The position numbers and the translations under genes are program-made. Positions 52,768 through 64,000 of a stretch of 64,000 bases of DNA are shown piece after piece; positions within the stretch are counted from its first letter, which is position 1; each line of letters starts with the position of its first letter. Under the pieces are notes generated by a model that saw nothing but the letters and a program-made list of their open reading frames with translations, did not search any database and had not been told where the DNA came from. Source of the stretch: a virus; the IMG/VR virus record IMGVR_UViG_3300040758_000214, positions 32,001 through 96,000 of that record. The stretch is one strand, 5' to 3'.

Positions 52768-55700
52768 TTATTTTTGTATTCCAATTACTGTAAGATAATT
52801 ATGTAAAAGTTTTACAGTTTCTGGACATCCATCTATGACTTTTGTTTCTTTATGATCAGAATCAATCATTTGTTTAATCCATTGGTTCTTCTTATCAATG
52901 CAATCAGACTTTGTAGTTAAGATCTCTCTTAAATTTTCGGTTGCATCTTGCGCTATTAAGCAGGCGAGTTCCATTTCGCCCGCGCGTTGGCCACCAGGAG
53001 GCTTTAAACCCTTATTTAAAATTCCTTTTCGTTTTGTATTTCCACCTCCAATTGGTTGTAGAGTCTTTTTCATATACAGACCAATTCCTCTTGCAGTCAT
53101 TTTGCTTTCAGCAATATGAAGCATACGAAAAAAGTACATCCAACCACATGCAATCATATTCTCAGTAAAACAATCAAATTCAGGGAGATAAACTTTTTGC
53201 TCATATTTACTTCCAGTGAATTCCATTGCAATTTTAAGCATTTCTTTAGTACATGATTCAAATGGGGGTTGAATTATTGTTAACTCTTCAATAAATTCTT
53301 TAGTTACAATTAAGGGGACTCTTTCTATAAATTGACTAGAATACCACTTTCCTTTTGTATTATCTATCATGGAAATAAATGTAATTAAATAACTCTTTAT
53401 ATCATCTTGAGATTTATCAGAATCTATCATTTGAATTAATTGCTTCTTTAAATTTTCTAAGGCTAATCCTAAATGTAATTCAAATATTTGTCCGATATTC
53501 ATTCTAGATGGCACACCTAGAGCATTTATACAAATATCAACATGTCTTCCATCTTCTAATCTTGGCATTTTATCATGTGGAACAATTCTTGAAATTACTC
53601 CTTTATTTCCATGACGATTTCCTATTTTATCTCCTACTGCAATACTTCTTGTATATACTCCATACATTTCTACATACATTCCATTAATTTTCTCATTTTT
53701 ACTTTTATATTTTCCGGTATGAGAAAATTTATCTAAATCATGATCTCTTATAAATTGTAAAGCTTCATCCTTTGGTAATGAATCATAAATAGGTTTTTGT
53801 AATTCTTTTTCATATTCAATTTGACTTTGAATTTTCTTTTCAACCCAATCATTAAATTCTGGTATTTCTTTATTCCATTCATTTGCATAAATATTAACTT
53901 CATTTACACCAACGACTTGTTTCTTAATTGTTAATGGAATAGCTTCTTCAAAGATTGATGAAAAGTCCATTGGTCCACTTGGTATTTCTTTTAAAATTGC
54001 ATAAGGAGTTCCTGCTTTAAGAACTTCAAAATTTAAAGGAGATTTACTTTTTGTTGCTTTTGGATTTGGTAAAGGTTTATAAATCTTTTTCTTTGTTCTC
54101 CTTTCTTCTTCTAATTCATCTTTAGTTCTATAAGGAAGATTAAATAAAACTTTACTCGGTGATAATGTAAATGATAAATCTATAAAATGAATAGAAGTAA
54201 AGACGTCTTTTCCATTTATTAATCTATCAGATATTAAAATTCCATCTTCAAAATTATATCCATCATATGATGTAACTGCAGTTAATAAATTTTTACCAAT
54301 ATTTATTTTACCATTTTTACAAAAACTAGATTCAATTAAAATATCTCCGGCTTTAAATTTATCTCCAACTTTAAAATAAATTGAATCAATTAAATCTAAA
54401 TTTTCAACATATATTTTTCTATAAAAAGTATCAAAAATATCTACGGTTTTATCATCATATACTACAATCATATGATTAGAATCTAAAAATATTACTTCTC
54501 CATTTTGTTTAGCTCTTCTTACAAATTGAGTTTGATCTGTATATAATCCTTCACATCCACTTTGAATCATTGGAATATCAAAATCTGTAAGACAAATTGA
54601 TTGCCTCATTTGAGAAGATGCCATTTGTAATCTTGTTTGGTCATCATGTTCTAAAAATGGAACTAATGATACAGGAATTGAAATAGGTTGTAATTCTAAA
54701 TATTCATCTGTAAATTTTAAATTTGAGTCAAGAATAGTATTTGGAATTAAATTTTGTAATACTCCACAATTTTCTCTATCTGGAGTATCTACAGGACATA
54801 CTCTACCAAACATAGAAGGGGTAATATCTCTTAAATGTTTAGGTACATTTTCTCTATCAAATCCTCCCGGTCCAACTAAACTTGTTCTTGATAATTTTGT
54901 TAATTCATCAATAGGATTAATTGAAAAGTCAAATTGGACTATATCAGACACATTACAATCTGATAATATCTGAGTTGAATTAATATTAAATTTAGGAGAT
55001 TTGGCAGTTCTATTTGACATACAAAAATCAAATATCGTTTTAGAAACCTTAGCTAAAACGATATATTCAAAACATCTAATTCTTTTATTAATATAATTTG
55101 TATCATCTATTTTTTCAGATTGTATTACATCAATCAATTCTTCTAAAATAGATTGAGTTCTAAAGAATTTAGAAGACATAATATCACACTTTAATATAAT
55201 ATCTAAAGCATATATCATATCTTGACCTTTTTGTGTTGGATCATATTTAGAACTAAATTTTCCTAGTTCTTTAATAAAATCATCTTGTGAATAATCTTCT
55301 GATGTATCATAATATCCTTTTAAATCATAAACTAATTTTTCAATCAATGTGTTTGGTGATTCATATTCCATATCTTTTAAACCAAATTTTTGATCTAAAT
55401 AATCTAATCCATAATATGATAATAATAGAAGAGAAAGAGGAACTATTTTATTTAAAAAACTCACTCTAATAAAAGGTTCCTCTTTAAATTCAATCACTGT
55501 AAGAGTTGCACAATTAGTTCTAATCTTAATTGTTTTTCCCCTTGTTACAACAGGAATATCAAACAATTGAAATAATGGAATCTTTCTCTTTCCATTAATA
55601 TAAAAGTAATTCCCATCTATTAATTTTGGAATAGACATTGATAAATTTATTTCTGCAGTAAGTTTTTTAAATTTAATAACAATATTCTTTTTTAATGTCC

Positions 55701-55890
55701 TATCCAATTCTCCTTCCATTGAAAATCTATGATCCCTTATCCCAAAATCAACAATTTCAAAACCAAGTTCTTCAGCTGGAACTAATATTTGTCTAATCTT
55801 ATTTTCTAAATCCTGATATTCATCTTTTCTAATTGTAAATATATTTTTGTTTAAATTGTGCAATTTGTAAAAAGGATTTATTAAGTCCAT
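52768..55890 (-). CDS. rpoB: phage multisubunit RNA polymerase beta subunit
   Basis: FYINGK, GRVCPVDTPD..NCG, PFLEHDD..R, QMRQ, GYNFEDG, GDKIGNRHGNKGV, SRMNIGQ, GGQRAGEME. Confidence 0.95.
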   Translation of the reverse strand: MDLINPFYKLHNLNKNIFTIRKDEYQDLENKIRQILVPAEELGFEIVDFGIRDHRFSMEGELDRTLKKNIVIKFKKLTAEINLSMSIPKLIDGNYFYINGKRKIPLFQLFDIPVVTRGKTIKIRTNCATLTVIEFKEEPFIRVSFLNKIVPLSLLLLSYYGLDYLDQKFGLKDMEYESPNTLIEKLVYDLKGYYDTSEDYSQDDFIKELGKFSSKYDPTQKGQDMIYALDIILKCDIMSSKFFRTQSILEELIDVIQSEKIDDTNYINKRIRCFEYIVLAKVSKTIFDFCMSNRTAKSPKFNINSTQILSDCNVSDIVQFDFSINPIDELTKLSRTSLVGPGGFDRENVPKHLRDITPSMFGRVCPVDTPDRENCGVLQNLIPNTILDSNLKFTDEYLELQPISIPVSLVPFLEHDDQTRLQMASSQMRQSICLTDFDIPMIQSGCEGLYTDQTQFVRRAKQNGEVIFLDSNHMIVVYDDKTVDIFDTFYRKIYVENLDLIDSIYFKVGDKFKAGDILIESSFCKNGKINIGKNLLTAVTSYDGYNFEDGILISDRLINGKDVFTSIHFIDLSFTLSPSKVLFNLPYRTKDELEEERRTKKKIYKPLPNPKATKSKSPLNFEVLKAGTPYAILKEIPSGPMDFSSIFEEAIPLTIKKQVVGVNEVNIYANEWNKEIPEFNDWVEKKIQSQIEYEKELQKPIYDSLPKDEALQFIRDHDLDKFSHTGKYKSKNEKINGMYVEMYGVYTRSIAVGDKIGNRHGNKGVISRIVPHDKMPRLEDGRHVDICINALGVPSRMNIGQIFELHLGLALENLKKQLIQMIDSDKSQDDIKSYLITFISMIDNTKGKWYSSQFIERVPLIVTKEFIEELTIIQPPFESCTKEMLKIAMEFTGSKYEQKVYLPEFDCFTENMIACGWMYFFRMLHIAESKMTARGIGLYMKKTLQPIGGGNTKRKGILNKGLKPPGGQRAGEMELACLIAQDATENLREILTTKSDCIDKKNQWIKQMIDSDHKETKVIDGCPETVKLLHNYLTVIGIQK

Positions 55891-55938
55891 TCATGTCTCC
55901 TTTTGGTTTAGTTAAAGTATGGATTGTATGATTTTCAA

Positions 55939-56280
55939 TTAAATATGACGTTGTGAATAATTGTTACAATAAACCATTATTGCCTCATATAATGCTAATT
56001 TAAAATCTCTATTAGAAGTAGTAACAATCAATGTATGTTCTTTAGTATAATATAACTTAACATCAGTTATTTTATTTCCACAACAACAAATATTCTCACT
56101 AAAATTTATAGATAATCCGATTGAATTGATTCTTTGTATAGTGCTTTCAACTAAGATTGAGCTTCCTAAATAATTTGGAAGATATCCAAAGTTTCCCCAA
56201 GGATCACACCATCTATTTGCAGAATCCTTTATCATTCCAAAAACTTTTTCAGCAATTTCTTCATTTGTAATTTTATTCAT
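55939..56280 (-). CDS. hypothetical protein (phage ABA-sandwich-like, tentative)
   Basis: EIAEKVFG...LPNY; inserted between beta' and beta. Confidence 0.5.
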   Translation of the reverse strand: MNKITNEEIAEKVFGMIKDSANRWCDPWGNFGYLPNYLGSSILVESTIQRINSIGLSINFSENICCCGNKITDVKLYYTKEHTLIVTTSNRDFKLALYEAIMVYCNNYSQRHI

Positions 56281-58980
56281 TTAAAACTCCCCTAATAATA
56301 TTTTGTCAAAAATTCCCTCATAGTTTCCAGAATTTAAAAGTCCCTTAATTATTGCAGATTTGGGATTCGAAAAAGCAATAGCAAGTAACCATGACTCATT
56401 TGTTGGAGCACTTTGGATTGAAAGGAACTTCGGTGTAACTTTATCTCTATTTTTCATTAATCTCCATTTATAATGTCCGACCCACATTAATTGCGATACA
56501 ATAGATTCAAAATGAACATGAAGTATTCCTTTGCTATTATTATAAACATCGAATAAATCAGAAACTAAATCTTCAGCAGTTTGGTCTTTTTTAAATTTAT
56601 GGAATAAATCAGACACAATTTTTAAATCACTAATTACATCTGATTGTTCCATATCAACAGATCCTTCTTTAATATTTGCTACACCTGATAAGTGGAAGGT
56701 ACGTAAGGTCAATTGTGTAGTGCACTCCCCCAAAGATTGCGCTCCAAGGATACCTATATACTTACTATCATTTAATTTATGAGTATTTCCATAACATGTT
56801 AGACAAATTTCTGGTGATGTGCAATATATTGGGCTTCTCACTTTTAACATTTGACCAACTAATTCTGAGCATTTATTTAATGTAATTAATTCTAATTTAT
56901 CATTATTTAAATAATATTTATTCACTAACATTTTTGCTTTATTTAAATTTTTAACATATACATTTAAATAATCTTTAGTTTCGCAATCCTTTAAATTTTT
57001 ATTTAATAAAAGATTAACTCCAGTGAATATTAATTTTCTTGATAAATATCCAGAAGTTCCAGTATTTAAAGCAACATCTAATAATCCTTTTCTACAACCA
57101 TAAGTTGAATTGAAGAATTCTTCTTCTGTTAATCCATCAAGTAAATTATTTTTAATTGCTTTAGGATATATTTCTCCATTAAAATTAGATACATATCCTC
57201 TGGTTAAAATCATTTGTTTTGCCTGATCCCAATTTCCACGAGCTCCTGAGTCAATTAAGTACGAATACTCAAAATTTTCTCTTAATGAATTTTCAATTTC
57301 AGGACTTGATAATTTATTAATTTGAGTCATTATATCATTAGACTCATAAATTGAATCTTTCAATTCTTGAACATTTGGAATTTCACAATGATTTAGAGAA
57401 ATAGTAGGAGCAAAAATTGTTGCATATTTGAATCCAACTTCTTTAATTTTATCTAGAGTTTGAACTGTTATATTTTCTGGCCAATTATTTTTAATACCAT
57501 TTAATATTTTTATCAGATTCTTTTTTATAACTATTTCATTTATTACCGGAAAATCTTCTGGCAAACATTCATTAAAGATTTTCATTCCTTCTGTAATTTC
57601 AATTCCTTTATATACAACTTTATTTAATAATGATGAAATTTTATTAGATGTAAGTGCATATAATCCCAATATTATATCTTGAGAAGGAACTGTAGCTAAA
57701 CTTTCATTTGCAGGACTTGTTAAATTTTTAGTAACTATTAATTTATCTAATGTTTCTTGTTTTGTCTTTTCTGTGATGGGAATATACACAGCCATCTGGT
57801 CTCCATCAAAATCTGCATTGAATCCTGAGCAAACTAATGGATGAATTTTAATAACATTATCTAATGAAGTTTTAATTTTAAATCCACAAATACTAAGTCT
57901 ATGAAGAGATGGTTGTCTATTTAACAAACATACTTCACCTTTAACAATTTCAGAGATATCATTGAATAAATCTGGTTTTTTCAATTCGATACAATTATCT
58001 ATAAAATCAATTGCATCATTTAATAATTTAAATTTACTATGTTCTATTAATCTTTTTGCTAATGGTAATTTGAATAACTCTAAAACCATAACATATGGAA
58101 GAACACATTCATCTAAATTTAATTTTGGATCAGGAATAATAACTGCTCTTCCTGAGAAATCAATTCTTTTACCTAATATATTTCCTCTTATTAATCCTTC
58201 TTTTTTACTAAGTTTTGTAACTATATGCGCATATAATTCATTTACATCTTTTTGTAATTGCCTAAAATATTGATAATAGAATTGTTTACTATGTTCTATA
58301 TCTACAATTGTATTTTGCATTGTTTCTTTTTTTGTTAAAATTTGCATATAATATCTATTTATTTCATCTACAATTTGATTATTCTTTTCAGATCCTTTTG
58401 CAGCTGGTCTTAAATCAGGTGGTAAAACTATAATATTTCTTATTAATAATGTATCAATATTATCTCTAATTAATTTCCATGCAGGAATATCATCTGCTAA
58501 TGCTATTGAAATTCCATTAACCATTTCATAAATTGCTTCAGTTCTTTCCCATATTCTACATCCTGCTTTTACATTTTCTAATTCCTTTACTACAACATAA
58601 TCATCTCCATCTTTATATAAAATACTTTTTTCATCTTTTAATAATAAGTCTATAGAATTCATTAAAGATGAGCCACCTAAAGTGGTAAGTAAATCATAAA
58701 ATACTGGATTCATAACTTTAATTGGAATTACAATTTTGGCAAATCTTCTTCTTCTTTCATAACTATTTACAATATCAACTTGACATACATTACATGCTCC
58801 ACCATCTGCTCTAGATATACCAAAGTAAGTTCCACACTGACAAGTATAGTTTCTTAATGGTCCAAAAATCTGTTCAGAAAATAAACCATTAGGATGATAA
58901 TTCTTTTTGTCCATCATTTTAATGGATGAAACTTCCTTTAAATTTTCACAGAAAGCATTGATGTTTAGAAGAGTTGGCAT
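56281..58980 (-). CDS. rpoC: phage multisubunit RNA polymerase beta' subunit
   Basis: GLFSEQIFGP, CQCG..CNVC, VLPPDLRP, GKRIDFSGR, NRQPSLH, catalytic NADFDGD, GYLSRKL, TQLTLRTFH. Confidence 0.97.
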   Translation of the reverse strand: MPTLLNINAFCENLKEVSSIKMMDKKNYHPNGLFSEQIFGPLRNYTCQCGTYFGISRADGGACNVCQVDIVNSYERRRRFAKIVIPIKVMNPVFYDLLTTLGGSSLMNSIDLLLKDEKSILYKDGDDYVVVKELENVKAGCRIWERTEAIYEMVNGISIALADDIPAWKLIRDNIDTLLIRNIIVLPPDLRPAAKGSEKNNQIVDEINRYYMQILTKKETMQNTIVDIEHSKQFYYQYFRQLQKDVNELYAHIVTKLSKKEGLIRGNILGKRIDFSGRAVIIPDPKLNLDECVLPYVMVLELFKLPLAKRLIEHSKFKLLNDAIDFIDNCIELKKPDLFNDISEIVKGEVCLLNRQPSLHRLSICGFKIKTSLDNVIKIHPLVCSGFNADFDGDQMAVYIPITEKTKQETLDKLIVTKNLTSPANESLATVPSQDIILGLYALTSNKISSLLNKVVYKGIEITEGMKIFNECLPEDFPVINEIVIKKNLIKILNGIKNNWPENITVQTLDKIKEVGFKYATIFAPTISLNHCEIPNVQELKDSIYESNDIMTQINKLSSPEIENSLRENFEYSYLIDSGARGNWDQAKQMILTRGYVSNFNGEIYPKAIKNNLLDGLTEEEFFNSTYGCRKGLLDVALNTGTSGYLSRKLIFTGVNLLLNKNLKDCETKDYLNVYVKNLNKAKMLVNKYYLNNDKLELITLNKCSELVGQMLKVRSPIYCTSPEICLTCYGNTHKLNDSKYIGILGAQSLGECTTQLTLRTFHLSGVANIKEGSVDMEQSDVISDLKIVSDLFHKFKKDQTAEDLVSDLFDVYNNSKGILHVHFESIVSQLMWVGHYKWRLMKNRDKVTPKFLSIQSAPTNESWLLAIAFSNPKSAIIKGLLNSGNYEGIFDKILLGEF

Positions 58981-59266: not shown

Positions 59267-59408
59267 TTAATTTTTTTGTACGAATCGAAAAAACATCTAC
59301 CATCATTCCGAAAGACTTATTCACAAACTTTTTTAAACTATCAGAAATATCATCAATTAATTCATGAGCTGTTGTTTCTAATTTACTTTTTTCTTTATTA
59401 TCAGGCAT
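59226..59408 (-). CDS. hypothetical protein
   Basis: ORF with RBS. Confidence 0.5.
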   Translation of the reverse strand: MPDNKEKSKLETTAHELIDDISDSLKKFVNKSFGMMVDVFSIRTKKLIEKQVKGVSDEKK

Positions 59409-59904
59409 ATATCAATTTCTCCTTTTCTACATCATTTTCATCATAACCATTTATGTTCCAAATAAATCTTTTATTATTTTTTTGTTTTTCTTTATGAATT
59501 CTAAAACTAAAATTTTTTGGATCTGATATATTAATAAATTCAAAACAATTCCAATATGATTTATAAAAGGTATTATAATTATAAGTTAAGAATTGATGTT
59601 CTATTATTTCTAAATCAGAATCTATTTCAAATAAATTTTGTTTAAAGAATTCTTGTATACAAAATATATTGGTAACTGGATTTTTATTTGGGTGAGGATT
59701 TTTAAACATTATAGATTCCAAATATCCATTTTTTAATTTTATCTCATATTTATTAATAATGAATTTATAAGGTATTTTTATTATTTCATATTTTTTTTCA
59801 TTCTTAATTAATATTTTAGGAATAATGAAACAATTAACTTTTATATGAATGATATTGATCTTATTTTCAACACTTGCTTTAATCAATTCTATTTTGTTTA
59901 GCAT
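59401..59904 (-). CDS. E2 (UBC)-like protein, prokaryotic type
   Basis: HPN-x8-C (PHPNKNPVTNIFCI), matching the E2 active-site layout; directly downstream of a ThiF-like gene. Confidence 0.5.
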   Translation of the reverse strand: MLNKIELIKASVENKINIIHIKVNCFIIPKILIKNEKKYEIIKIPYKFIINKYEIKLKNGYLESIMFKNPHPNKNPVTNIFCIQEFFKQNLFEIDSDLEIIEHQFLTYNYNTFYKSYWNCFEFINISDPKNFSFRIHKEKQKNNKRFIWNINGYDENDVEKEKLIYA

Positions 59905-59918
59905 AAGTATATGTCTCC

Positions 59919-60791
59919 TTATGCCGAAATAGTTTGAGTAATAATTTTTACTAAATATTTATTCTGTCTTGCTAAAGGCATACAAACTCTATAAGTCATA
60001 TTTTTATCTATTAACATTGATAAAATCTGTTCTCTAACATCATCAACATCTTTTAATTGTGTCATTCTTATTTCTTTTATATTTTCTTTTTTTTCATCTT
60101 TTAGAGAAAATAATATTGGAAACTTTTTATTTCTTTCTATAATATCGGATACATGAAGATCTAAATCTTCTAATATTTCATCACTATCATGACTTTCAAA
60201 TATAACATTGACTCCATCATTATAATTTTTAAATTCATAAAAGTCAGATTTTGTTAAATCTAAATCAATTGAATATAATTTTTTTAAATCTACTAATTCT
60301 TTAATCATTCCACTTTCAAAATATTGAGTAGCCATTAATGCAGCCATTTCAATTTTAGATTTACTAAGTTCTACAGAATATCTTGTATTTACTAATGGCT
60401 TATATGTAATATTTTTTCTACAATCTAAAACTAAAAAATCCGAATATTGAAAATACATTTTAACATCAACTCTATTATTTCTATTATTAAAATTATCAGT
60501 GCAATCTATAATTAAATCAATATTATTCGGGATTATAGTATGATCTATAAAATTTGTTTTAGAAACAATAACTTTAATATCTTTATAATCTCTAAGTATT
60601 TTATTTCTAATTGGATAAACTTTTCCTTGCCCGATATCATTTTGATTATATAATGAATTAATCAAATTTTTCTCATTGACAATATCTGAATCATATAATA
60701 ATAATTCTTTAACACAACCAGATTTAGCTAAATGATATGAAAAGAAACTCCCCAACGATCCAACTCCAGCAATTAAAATCCTATTAAACAT
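59919..60791 (-). CDS. ThiF/E1-like adenylyltransferase (divergent, second copy)
   Basis: GVGSLGS, YDSDIVNEKNL, DIGQGKV, IIDCTD; lacks the RQ motif. Confidence 0.75.
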   Translation of the reverse strand: MFNRILIAGVGSLGSFFSYHLAKSGCVKELLLYDSDIVNEKNLINSLYNQNDIGQGKVYPIRNKILRDYKDIKVIVSKTNFIDHTIIPNNIDLIIDCTDNFNNRNNRVDVKMYFQYSDFLVLDCRKNITYKPLVNTRYSVELSKSKIEMAALMATQYFESGMIKELVDLKKLYSIDLDLTKSDFYEFKNYNDGVNVIFESHDSDEILEDLDLHVSDIIERNKKFPILFSLKDEKKENIKEIRMTQLKDVDDVREQILSMLIDKNMTYRVCMPLARQNKYLVKIITQTISA

Positions 60792-61054: not shown

Positions 61055-61086
61055 TGAAAAGGGATATTTTTACATATCCCTTTTCA
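61055..61086. terminator. hairpin terminator
   Basis: tgaaaagggatat/atatcccttttca inverted repeat. Confidence 0.65.
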
Positions 61087-61591: not shown

Positions 61592-61623
61592 AGGGATGCA
61601 TTACTTTAATATAATGCATCCCT
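61592..61623. terminator. hairpin downstream of Ubl gene
   Basis: agggatgcatta/taatgcatccct inverted repeat. Confidence 0.65.
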
Positions 61624-61638
61624 TCCAATTAATAAAAA

Positions 61639-62283
61639 TTACCCTTTACGGCCACTAGTTTTCAGATATTCAAGATTATCATTTTCCTGAATAACATAAT
61701 TCAATCCTACTTCTTTTCCACACGCAAGGGCACGAGGAATATTGCTACCAATATTCAGAACTTCCTTAAGAAACTCTGCAACCTGTCCAACAGTTTTTCC
61801 GATTACATTAAAATTCCCAGAGGAAGCTCCACAAGAAACATGAATAGTGGATTTAATTCTATCGGATGAAGAATTAGGATTAACAACAGTATTCTTCATT
61901 GTTATTTCCATCGTAGAAATACCACCAATTGACGGACCAGTAACTGTGGATCTTACAGGAGCACTAGCCACACCAATCTTAGAAAGAATAGCTGCAACTA
62001 ATTCATCCTTAGGTTTTTTACTCATTCCAGAAATACTAAGTTCCTGACAAATTTCACGAAGATCAGAATTGGTCAACTCTAGAAGACCTTCTTTTGTATA
62101 ACGAGGAGCTGTAGCAGAAGAAGTCTGATTGTTGGCGGTTGAACCAGCCTTGGATAAAATTGCTTCCATGATAACATCTTTACGTGCTTTACTCATTCCA
62201 GTGATACCAAGACTCTGGCAAATTTCACGAAGCTCACCATTGGTTTTTTCAACTAATTCGCCATAATTATAAGTTCTTGCCAT
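61639..62283 (-). CDS. ubiquitin-like (beta-grasp) protein fused to two Rho-N/HeH repeats
   Basis: Two repeats LREICQ.L.I.GMSK..KD....AIL; C-terminal ~70 aa with GKTV..V...L...LNI, V..NY.I.END.LEY, ending KTSGRKG. Confidence 0.75.
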   Translation of the reverse strand: MARTYNYGELVEKTNGELREICQSLGITGMSKARKDVIMEAILSKAGSTANNQTSSATAPRYTKEGLLELTNSDLREICQELSISGMSKKPKDELVAAILSKIGVASAPVRSTVTGPSIGGISTMEITMKNTVVNPNSSSDRIKSTIHVSCGASSGNFNVIGKTVGQVAEFLKEVLNIGSNIPRALACGKEVGLNYVIQENDNLEYLKTSGRKG

Positions 62284-62376
62284 TTGTAATTCTCCTATTC
62301 ATTTTTTGGTTTTTACTACAATTAAAGTTATCCTTGTATAGAAAGGATTCTTAATTTAAAATTGTATAATTTGGTC

Positions 62377-63066
62377 TTACTTTTTCAATTCTCTAGACTT
62401 TGAATCTACTTTCATTGTTGTAATGTCAAAATATGCTTCTGAGTTTTTATAATTTTCCTGCAATACATTATAAAACGCACAGCACATTAGTGTTGCCGCA
62501 GCTAAATTGGTAAAATATAATTGAGGTTCACCAGCTGCAGATAATTCTTGGCAACTCATTTCATCTGGTGATTTATCATCAGGTTCATCAATTTCTGGAT
62601 GATAATCAGTCAAACTTGGCGTTAAATCTTCACCTCCTTTTCTTACATATATTTGAACATTACCATCTACATAATCATTCCCCCCGGAGATTAATGTAAT
62701 GTTGTTCAAACTTTTTGAATAATCTGATACAAGTTTTCTAGTTTTATGATTATCAACCGCTAAAAATACAGTATCACCATCTTCAATCAAAGTATCAATT
62801 ACATCTTTATTTACATAAAATGGAAATGATTTAAATTCAATATTATTAAATTTAGATTGAAGTTCAAATGATTTCACTTGTGCCTTATTTCCCATATTGG
62901 AAAAATCTTGTCTTTCAAAATTTTTGGTTTCATATTCATCACCATCAATTAAAGTCACATTTGCTTTGGTATTTGAATAATTAATAAACCTTGAAATTTT
63001 TTCTGATAAAATAGATCCAATTCCTCCTAATCCAATAATTTTAATCGTATGGCCAGAGTGGTACAC
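62377..63066 (-). CDS. E1/ThiF-family Ubl-activating enzyme
   Basis: GLGGIGS, IDGD...NFERQ, NKA, AVDNHKTR, SGGN, candidate catalytic Cys in MSCQE. Confidence 0.9.
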   Translation of the reverse strand: MYHSGHTIKIIGLGGIGSILSEKISRFINYSNTKANVTLIDGDEYETKNFERQDFSNMGNKAQVKSFELQSKFNNIEFKSFPFYVNKDVIDTLIEDGDTVFLAVDNHKTRKLVSDYSKSLNNITLISGGNDYVDGNVQIYVRKGGEDLTPSLTDYHPEIDEPDDKSPDEMSCQELSAAGEPQLYFTNLAAATLMCCAFYNVLQENYKNSEAYFDITTMKVDSKSRELKK

Positions 63067-64000
63067 TTATAAGCTCCTCTGTTTCTATAATTTTACTACG
63101 ATCATCTTTTTCTTTTTTGGTTATAAATGTATCATCTTTTTTGCATTTTTTAATCATACCTAATAATTCTTTTTCATCTTTAGCAAACTTTAAATTACAT
63201 TTATAACATGGATTAAAATATTTAGATTGTTGTGATTTAATGGCAGATGATGATATAGTTTGAGGTAAATTAGGTGTATGAATAGTTTTCTTTTGATTAT
63301 ACTCATGATCATCTACACCACCATTAACTCTATTCATATACCTATAAAACCACATATCATTTTCAAGGTCATCATTTATATTTCCACCATATCCACCATC
63401 ACTATAAAAACTATATCCATTATTATGTTGTCCATATCCTCCAAAACTATAAGCTTTTCTGAAATTATATTTCTCAACATTTATTAACCATTTTGGATCA
63501 CATTCTACACTTGATAAATGTTGTGAAATTATATATCCTGTTGTAGTTTTCATTTCCTTTTGATAAACTTTTTCTTTCCCAATTACTTCATATTTTGGTC
63601 TAAACATTGACTTAAAATATTTTGTATATTCAGTTTTATAAACTCCATCAATATAATCCAATGGATCAACTTCAACTCTATAACCATTTGACGCTATGGA
63701 TGCTACAATTTTATGAGTATCAGAATCAATTTCTCCAACAGTAATATGCAAACCATCAAAATCTTCTTCATCATGAGTATCTGTTCCAGAGTGAAAGGCG
63801 CTGAATCCTGGATGACTATGAATTGAACATACTGGTTGATAATTTTTTATAGATATCTGATAATTATCTTCCACATTAACACTTGCTCCTGAAACTGATT
63901 GCTCTGGAATATGCACCTTAAATGCCTTTTTCTTTGGATTATAATAAATAATTGCTAATCCTTCTGCTCTATGCCCATGATATACTTTTTTGAAAAAGTC
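63041..64000 (-). CDS. JAB/MPN+ metalloprotease (deubiquitinase-like), 5' truncated by window end
   Basis: HSHPGFSAFHSGTD (HxH-x7-S-x2-D), GLHIT; frame stays open 63917-64000 (DFFKKVYHGHRAEGLAIIYY) with the candidate catalytic Glu. Confidence 0.88.
   Translation of the reverse strand, partial: DFFKKVYHGHRAEGLAIIYYNPKKKAFKVHIPEQSVSGASVNVEDNYQISIKNYQPVCSIHSHPGFSAFHSGTDTHDEEDFDGLHITVGEIDSDTHKIVASIASNGYRVEVDPLDYIDGVYKTEYTKYFKSMFRPKYEVIGKEKVYQKEMKTTTGYIISQHLSSVECDPKWLINVEKYNFRKAYSFGGYGQHNNGYSFYSDGGYGGNINDDLENDMWFYRYMNRVNGGVDDHEYNQKKTIHTPNLPQTISSSAIKSQQSKYFNPCYKCNLKFAKDEKELLGMIKKCKKDDTFITKKEKDDRSKIIETEELISVPLWPYD

Follow-up and report, generated by a model that had tools for sequence, protein, structure and literature searches.

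Two HeH (Rho_N) modules joined to a ubiquitin-like domain within an E1-E2-JAB gene cassette of uncultured large tailed phages: a candidate phage-encoded protein modifier

Conjugation of ubiquitin-like proteins (Ubls) in bacteria is known from the Bil, Bub and CBASS Cap2 systems, which have been described as serving anti-phage defence or stress response. For the Bil and Bub Ubls of bacteria, a catalogue of N-terminal domains lists N/G-rich tails, coiled coils and DUF1508, and not Rho_N/helix-extended loop-helix (HeH) domains (PMC11601603). In a 2006 survey of prokaryotic Ubl systems, HeH and SAP domains are not mentioned and the only phage Ubl discussed is the lambda-type tail-assembly protein TAPI; phage Ubl systems are mentioned neither in a 2021 paper on jumbo-phage comparative genomics nor in a 2026 review. 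Here we analyse a 64,000-nucleotide stretch of viral DNA (the window; bases 32001-96000 of IMG/VR record IMGVR_UViG_3300040758_000214), which contains the gene of a 214-residue protein composed of two HeH modules and a C-terminal Ubl domain. The gene belongs to a cassette that also encodes proteins of the E1, E2 and JAB types. The reading that we moderately favour is that the phage encodes a conjugatable Ubl with the HeH modules as its cargo.

The source record is a 143-kb contig of AT-rich DNA (GC ~27%) with a CheckV completeness of ~46%. Because the ESM Atlas clusters containing the same type of protein are 98-100% viral, with Uroviricota predominating, the source element is an uncultured large tailed phage. 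A tblastn search with the 214-residue protein against 50,697 GenBank phage records gave no match, and a literature search of incomplete coverage found no description of a Rho_N-Ubl fusion or of this phage cassette. Neither the HeH-Ubl design nor the phage cassette is described in the literature searched, while the type of system as such is already known.

The HeH-HeH-Ubl gene (61639..62283, stop codon included, minus strand) is an open reading frame (ORF) with orthologues in 80 IMG/VR loci. Read in the direction of translation on the minus strand, it encodes HeH/Rho_N module 1 (residues 6-45, 62149..62268), linker 1 (residues 46-62, 62098..62148), HeH/Rho_N module 2 (residues 63-102, 61978..62097), linker 2 (residues 103-144, 61852..61977) and a beta-grasp Ubl domain (residues 145-214, 61642..61851), which has a conserved G-x-K-G motif and a free C-terminal Gly214. 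The protein ends in ...SGRKG and the next codon is the stop codon TAA; K213 and G214 are invariant in an alignment of 59 sequences. The first-pass annotation, which had been made from the window's letters, had proposed this combination of two Rho_N/HeH modules, Ser/Thr/Ala linkers and a Ubl domain ending in Gly, and the Pfam matches and structure models described below bear it out. It had also credited the gene with its own ribosome-binding site, and the sequence does contain a Shine-Dalgarno element (AGGAG, 62292..62296, minus strand) 8 nt 5' of the ATG. A sigma-70-like promoter candidate (62388-62361, 10 of 12 positions matching) in the 93-nt gap 5' of the gene was rejected, as such sites occurred at chance density (45 found, 37 expected).

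Pfam Rho_N (PF07498, clan CL0306) matched two stretches of the protein with E 3.4e-15 and 56.2 bits, the cut-off being 24.9. In a six-frame search of the whole contig the first and the second copy scored 31.5 and 30.0 bits, respectively, each above the cut-off, so that the assignment of the repeats to the Rho N-terminal/HeH type can be kept for both; no further Rho_N was found on the 143-kb contig by this search. Module 2 was also recognized by a family-specific hidden Markov model. In the AlphaFold models the modules form helices at residues 15-25 and 35-49, and 72-81 and 92-102, with predicted local distance difference test (pLDDT) block values of 96-98, which corresponds to a predicted helix-extended loop-helix fold. 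When the repeats were aligned with each other (BLOSUM62, local) the score was 126, compared with 23.7 +/- 4.6 (maximum 47) for 1000 shuffles. In register they share 24 of 41 residues (59%) and 67% of the DNA sequence. To call them near-identical was thus an overstatement, and these identity values indicate that the HeH pair goes back to an old duplication that has been maintained. Constraint on the modules is evident from the mean pairwise identity in the family, 48% for HeH against 30% for linker 2; the corresponding value for the Ubl core is 68%. HeH was present in 74+3 of the 81 members of the clade.

The two linkers (residues 46-62 and 103-144) have a composition rich in S/T/A/G/P/N, and their pLDDT is low. 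Linker 1, rich in Ser, Thr, Ala and Asn, is flexible: its 10-residue blocks have pLDDT values of 81, 51 and 90, and residues 54-57 fall below 50. Linker 2 contains a semi-conserved segment. In the full-length model a strand was predicted at residues 125-133, with 10-residue block means of 49-88 over residues 111-150; in the model of the C-terminal domain alone the pLDDT of this segment was below 50. The segment may be an extra beta-strand packing on the Ubl domain.

The full-length model, built with the 59-sequence alignment (mean pLDDT 82.5), contains two confident helix-loop-helix modules, low-confidence linkers and a C-terminal alpha/beta domain. Modelled alone, the C-terminal 95 residues adopted a beta-beta-alpha-beta-beta-beta core with block pLDDT of 86-95. 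A Foldseek search of the PDB with this domain-only model gave a best E value of 8.4e-4 and target-normalized template modelling (TM) scores of 0.62-0.68 for the ubiquitin and SUMO rows, and nearly all rows shown were chains of ubiquitin, SUMO, NEDD8, TtuB and SAMP1 or fusions thereof. A search independent of Foldseek (VIA) returned Fubi (Z 8.1), ISG15 (7.8), MoaD (7.6), TtuB (7.2) and the bacterial BilA chain 8tyz_B (6.8). Z values of 7-8 are by themselves middling. However, as the match list is uniform and sequence links lead to ThiS/MoaD-type families, the beta-grasp assignment is safe at the level of a predicted structure. The Ubl domain proposed in the first-pass annotation was thereby confirmed by structure prediction, with ubiquitin, SUMO, NEDD8, ISG15, MoaD, TtuB and SAMP1 as top matches. 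With the full-length model Foldseek gave nothing at E <= 0.001, since the score is diluted by the presence of three domains, but even there Ubls occupied the top rows. A sequence-profile search of the PDB found marginal Rho N-terminal matches only and no Ubl.

To collect relatives of the Ubl domain, the C-terminal 100 residues were used as query of an exhaustive HMMER search, and hits were counted as representatives of 50%-identity clusters. There were 197 representatives at E <= 0.001, and 60 of these also reached E <= 1e-10. Among the best 157 of the 197, the C-terminus was exactly K-G in 89 and K-G-C in 17, and the family-specific model found a single HeH in 90 and a pair in 16, which leaves 51 without any. 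The two-module form is therefore a recurrent minority version of a common design. A Pfam scan of 150 representatives yielded Rho_N in 75, ThiS in 39 (best E 1.3e-18), TGS in 36, SAP in 15 and Ub-Mut7C in 9. Since the relatives match ThiS, TGS and Ub-Mut7C, the Ubl domain is linked by sequence homology to the ThiS/MoaD-type beta-grasp superfamily. Pfam matches to S4, FHA and CSD also occurred among the relatives; a PDB match to FHA sits on the beta-grasp segment 'VNG..V..Y.L..GD.LEF', and at least FHA and S4 were read as chance likeness to this segment and not as extra domains.

The forms without HeH include stand-alone Ubls of 65-73 residues, tandem poly-Ubl chains and fusions of a Ubl to GNAT. 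Four representatives (P0019, P0089, P0010 and P0112) are tandem chains of 3-10 Ubl domains, and in the first two each unit ends in SG[QT]KG; in P0131 and P0156 a GNAT acetyltransferase follows the conserved Gly of the Ubl. Tandem arrangement also exists with HeH: a 319-residue ORF in another phage locus (L062:9272-10216, IMG/VR UViG_3300033146_002768) consists of two whole Rho_N-Ubl units in head-to-tail order; AGRKG closes the first, and the second starts directly after it. By analogy with polyubiquitin, such precursors make sense only when they are cleaved by a peptidase behind the conserved Gly. No NCBIfam match was found for ten of the stand-alone relatives, and a scan of cellular genomes with one of them (P0082) recovered just the 2.4-kb contig that encodes it, which belongs to a Saccharibacteria metagenome-assembled genome.

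In three Rho_N-Ubl proteins (P0068, P0091 and the Ubl ORF of locus L080) the GxKG motif is followed by a Lys-rich tail of ~65 residues. The tail of P0091 resembles NUMOD3 (E 0.0016) and a region after the Ubl of P0102 resembles Trans_reg_C (winged-helix-like, E 5e-4), both weakly and below the cut-off. These regions are possible further DNA-binding modules.

The TGS matches of 36 of the 150 relatives and the presence of the RAF Ras-binding domain (RBD) among the structural matches could also be taken to mean that the protein is no modifier at all. In that case it would be an ordinary DNA- or RNA-binding phage protein, whose beta-grasp domain acts non-covalently like TGS or RBD and whose proximity to E1 and JAB genes is inherited synteny. 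This is highly improbable. The domain ends at an invariant K-G that is the C-terminus of the protein in most of the family, tandem precursors exist, and in every locus having upstream DNA the gene follows an E1 gene with an invariant active site.

This E1 gene (62377..63066, minus strand; Pfam ThiF, E 1.5e-18) encodes the presumed activating enzyme, a minimal 229-residue protein that consists of one ThiF-type domain (residues 8-222). Its GxGGxG, Arg52-Gln53, VDNH..R and Cys172 were invariant in 68 of 68 non-redundant orthologues. The next gene upstream encodes a 395-residue JAB/JAMM peptidase (63041..64000, minus strand, the 5' end lying past the window edge; Pfam Prok-JAB, E 2e-5). Genes beyond the window edge were read in locus L003, which contains the full JAB ORF. 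Glu89, His137, His139, Ser147 and Asp150 of the peptidase were invariant in 67 of 67 orthologues. Just upstream of it, outside the window on the minus strand (window-equivalent 64221-66767, L003:8222-10768), an 848-residue protein is encoded with an E2-like domain in its first ~260 residues; Asn160 and Cys168 of the E2-like '..N-x7-C' motif were invariant in 63 of 63 orthologues. The syntenic orthologue of this protein in locus L007 matched Pfam Prok-E2_D with 30.5 bits (cut-off 25, E 3.6e-7) over the same profile region as the protein considered here. No family match was obtained for the remaining ~590 residues. This C-terminal part probably selects substrates, a role considered for the 848-residue protein because no E3 was seen. 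The invariance of catalytic residues across 63-68 orthologues suggests that the E1, the E2-domain protein and the JAB peptidase are active.

A second, E1-like/E2-like pair of genes (59401-60791, minus strand) encodes a 290-residue ThiF-like and a 167-residue protein. The former retains GxGxxG and D-C-x-D, and its RQ is replaced. In the latter HPN was invariant in 45 of 45 orthologues and a Cys nine residues further was present in 44 of 45, which suggests a second E2. Together they may constitute another E1/E2 pair or, alternatively, serve the first E1 as a scaffold partner; no additional Ubl was recognised.

Since the E1, the E2 domain and the JAB peptidase of the cassette keep invariant catalytic residues, it is reasonable to suppose that the Ubl is conjugated. 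The protein would then be a 'beads on a string' modifier, in which two HeH modules and flexible linkers precede a beta-grasp domain ending in a conserved Gly. The adjacent 229-residue E1 would adenylate Gly214 and take over the Ubl as a thioester on Cys172, from where it would be transferred to Cys168 of the Prok-E2_D-like N-terminal domain of the 848-residue protein. Attachment to lysines of target proteins would follow, and the JAB peptidase would strip the Ubl off. With every conjugation the target would acquire one or two HeH modules, whose role there would most likely be weak, non-specific DNA or RNA binding or, alternatively, contact with a protein partner.

As the protein already ends at Gly, maturation by the JAB peptidase would be needless here, and the first-pass annotation had assigned to the peptidase deconjugation rather than maturation. 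This holds for the 214-residue protein and for those relatives that need no trimming: in the 80 IMG/VR loci 53 Ubls end exactly at Gly, while JAB is present in 76. It cannot be extended to the 21 Ubls with one extra Cys, to the few with tails or to the tandem units, where JAB must also mature the Ubl. In the four loci without JAB the available DNA stops at the Ubl gene or shortly upstream of it.

Several observations weigh against a conjugatable Ubl with HeH cargo. The C-terminal domain of the 214-residue protein itself has no Pfam Ubl match, and the C-terminus is K-G and not the di-glycine G-G, although for Type II BilA a single conserved Gly is the rule, so that GG is dispensable for some Ubls (PMC10557695). 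The predicted template modelling (pTM) score of the full-length model is 0.34, which means that the mutual arrangement of the domains is not fixed by this model. The 848-residue protein of the window's own genome matches Prok-E2_D only with E 0.067, there is no recognisable E3, and the E1 is of the minimal ThiF/MoeB-like type that also serves sulfur carriers. The net charge of the two modules (0 and -1, compared with a family mean of +2.0, sd 2.1) is modest for a nucleic-acid binder. Finally, what the analysis shows is the architecture, the fold, the family, the conserved gene context and the invariance of catalytic residues, whereas activation, transfer, conjugation, the HeH role and any target are inferred.

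The type of the E1 bears directly on another reading, in which the protein is a sulfur carrier resembling ThiS, MoaD or TtuB. The E1 would make a C-terminal thiocarboxylate, the HeH modules would dock the carrier on DNA or RNA for thiolation, and JAB would only trim precursors, as in the pairs CysO/Mec and QbsE/QbsD. The ThiS matches of the relatives (none was found for the 214-residue protein itself), the E1 with ThiF and MoeB as its best-scoring models and its single-domain form, TtuB and MoaD among the structural matches, the radical-SAM gene located a few genes upstream in 64 of 80 loci, and the extra C-terminal Cys that needs trimming in 21 of 80 relatives are all compatible with it. Sulfur-carrier pathways, however, are without E2s, and two E2-like proteins with an invariant or nearly invariant catalytic Cys are encoded in the block. 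Polyubiquitin-like tandem precursors, the C-terminal KG in place of GG, and the failure to find a PP-loop ATPase or a rhodanese on the 143-kb contig (~46% complete) also speak against thiolation, and we regard this reading as improbable.

If, as we favour, the Ubl is conjugated, the function of the tag would depend on the HeH modules. They carry a conserved basic SKxRK block, which corresponds to the R(M/L)RK block of Rho. The N-terminal helix bundle of Rho is positively charged, and contact with the RNA backbone has been proposed for its R(M/L)RK block (PMC11347177). In polyvalent proteins of phages and plasmids, Rho-N/SAP HeH domains are predicted binders of double-stranded DNA (PMC5512222). 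PHROG profiles of an Arc-like repressor and of the endonuclease VII family matched the 214-residue protein, and because the matches fall at the C-terminal ends of these profiles, they suggest that the same HeH module is appended to the corresponding DNA-handling phage proteins. By analogy, nucleic-acid binding by the modules is plausible, and it is proposed here tentatively.

The other possibility is that the modules serve protein interaction, a role that we rate as rather unlikely. Protein binding is known for members of the HeH clan such as LEM. The tag would still be conjugated, and its modules would be handles for the C-terminal region of the 848-residue protein, for the second E1/E2 pair or for a reader protein, or they would supply lysines for chains; this version of the scheme also appears rather unlikely. 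The low net charge of the modules fits it, as does the variation of the HeH copy number (0, 1 or 2) without loss of the cassette. In one relative (L089) the N-terminal region is divergent and very acidic and replaces the usual module, an observation that was counted against nucleic-acid binding and in favour of a protein handle. Against this stand the SKxRK block, thought to contact nucleic acid in Rho, the positive mean charge of the family, the PHROG profiles that seem to bear the same module, and the DNA-binding-like modules found, weakly, after the Ubl in a few relatives.

The genes in and around the cassette are transcribed in the order WYL_2 protein, 848-residue protein, JAB, E1 and HeH-Ubl. 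The HeH-Ubl gene is followed by a hairpin and then by genes for a 153-residue protein, a 77-residue protein, the 290-residue ThiF-like protein, the 167-residue protein, small ORFs, RNA polymerase (RNAP) beta', a 113-residue ORF and RNAP beta. The same order was found on contigs whose Ubl domains are only 48-67% identical. Among the 80 loci, which had been collected by a pattern scan of IMG/VR, tblastn detected beta' and beta in 79, the second ThiF protein in 78, the E1 in 76 and the 848-residue protein in 72. Nearly all loci lacking an upstream gene are cut off at the Ubl gene or a short distance upstream of it. Exceptional in its gene content is a 459-kb contig (L092), on which a Ubl without HeH is accompanied by E1, JAB and an E2-like gene, and no polymerase gene is located within 10 kb.

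Upstream of the cassette, genes for WYL_2 (E 1.4e-8) and radical-SAM (E 5.5e-10) proteins are located (L003:10805-12139, minus strand), and an SbcC-like gene lies slightly beyond them. WYL_2, radical-SAM and SbcC-like genes occur with the cassette in 66, 64 and 55 of the 80 loci, respectively.

The hairpin noticed downstream of the gene in the first-pass annotation was located at 61592..61623 (minus strand), 15 nt after the stop codon. It has a 13-bp stem and a folding free energy of -22.2 kcal/mol (z -4.2). It has no U-tract and is not among the terminator-like sites listed for its region. Among 69 non-redundant loci, 66 have a stem-loop of -12 kcal/mol or below in the 90 nt 3' of the Ubl stop codon; the mean is -22.0 kcal/mol, versus -13.2 for control windows taken from coding sequence, and in several cases a T-run comes next. 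These hairpins are GC-rich, and their position is conserved while their sequence is not. The element is probably a terminator or an RNA-stability element that closes the E2-JAB-E1-Ubl transcription unit or protects its 3' end. The possibility that it is a repeated genomic element (GGGAT...ATCCC) was rejected, as only two matches were found, which is the chance level. The second match belongs to another strong hairpin (13 pairs, window 61055-61086) between the genes of the 77-residue and 153-residue proteins, which shares the GGGAT...ATCCC core with the post-Ubl hairpin and has A/T runs on either side; the motif occurs twice in the window.

The polymerase genes (52768-58980, minus strand) encode unsplit beta' (899 residues) and beta (1040 residues) subunits, with beta' transcribed first. 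The best tblastn matches of beta in the GenBank phage records were bacterial-type rpoB sequences with ~25% identity, and 80% query coverage was reached in none. One related contig has a beta' of 1256 residues with an intein (Intein_splicing). The first-pass annotation had named beta and beta' as possible substrates of the Ubl. The evidence for this is adjacency, and the proposal is speculation of low probability. The hairpin and 4-6 genes separate the Ubl gene from rpoC. The adjacency, which holds in 79 of 80 loci, may be synteny of one clade, for these loci have ~20 kb of gene order in common and hence are not independent. It is also distinctly improbable that the clade uses Ubl conjugation in transcription or genome handling, with HeH-Ubl attached to the two-subunit phage RNAP, to host RNAP or to nucleoid proteins. 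If it did so, the tag would be a removable nucleic-acid-binding appendage that substitutes for missing accessory subunits, which would account for the linkage of cassette and polymerase genes seen in 79 of 80 loci.

Compared with the bacterial systems known from defence and stress response, a whole clade of uncultured large tailed phages here has its own E1, E2, JAB and Ubl genes and a second E1/E2-like pair, in a fixed core block beside the phage RNAP genes. With HeH on nearly every Ubl of the clade, the modifier would be a tag whose handle is likely to bind nucleic acid (or a partner). Should conjugation be confirmed, one would ask what a virus modifies with its own Ubl system, whether the phage system counters Ubl-based defence of the host, and whether HeH-Ubl tags can relocate proteins to DNA or RNA. 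These questions concern both prokaryotic ubiquitin-like pathways and phage biology, and the compact E1/E2/Ubl set is a potential protein-ligation tool.

Among known systems, BilABCD (PMC10557695, 10.1101/2023.09.04.556158, PMC11601603) shares with the phage cassette the same four parts, Ubl, E2, JAB and E1. It also shares the single conserved C-terminal Gly, at times followed by a few residues that JAB removes, and Ubls whose beta-grasp domains may number one to several and whose N-terminal domains vary; the structural match to BilA was noted above. Bil, however, belongs to bacterial defence islands and its E1 has the IAD-AAD-CYS form, whereas the present system is phage-encoded, its E1 is a single 229-residue ThiF domain, its E2 domain is fused to ~590 residues and there is a second E1-like/E2-like pair. 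PADLOC (v2.0.0, 2023) gave no match for the Ubl, JAB or E2 and weak generic E1-E2 matches for the two ThiF proteins.

Among curated families, the enzymes come closest to those of the PRTRC cassette (TIGR03735, TIGR03736, TIGR03737), which is known from plasmids and genomic islands and like the phage cassette resides on mobile elements. In NCBIfam the JAB protein matched PRTRC_A (E 7e-7, 160 of 192 profile positions, 28.9 bits, cut-off 101.8), the E1 matched PRTRC_ThiF over nearly its full length (E 5e-9, 35.9 bits, cut-off 144.75) and the E2 domain matched PRTRC_B (E 0.035, 13.4 bits, cut-off 131.45). Membership in PRTRC was rejected because all three scores are far below the curated cut-offs. 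In addition, no ParB-like partner was seen here, and the Ubl bears HeH modules.

ThiS, MoaD, TtuB and SAMP resemble the phage system in the beta-grasp fold, in the minimal ThiF-type E1, in the JAB partner that some of them have and in the ThiS matches of the relatives. They differ from it in that here E2-like proteins are present, the end is KG and not GG, and no sulfur-transfer partners were found on the ~46% complete contig. The N-terminal helix bundle of Rho (PF07498, in the HeH clan with SAP and LEM) is similar in the family match of both copies, the helix-extended loop-helix structure and the R(M/L)RK-like block. In contrast to Rho, the phage protein has neither the OB-fold RNA-binding domain nor the ATPase, its modules are fused to a Ubl and their net charge is neutral.

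To ubiquitin and SUMO there is no detectable sequence relation beyond the fold. The organization of the relatives as head-to-tail units or with C-terminal extensions, to be cut after a conserved Gly, nevertheless recalls the eukaryotic polyubiquitin and ubiquitin-fusion precursors. The SAP-domain SUMO ligases (PIAS/Siz) likewise couple an HeH/SAP module to a Ubl pathway, with the difference that there the module is carried by the ligase, and here by the modifier.

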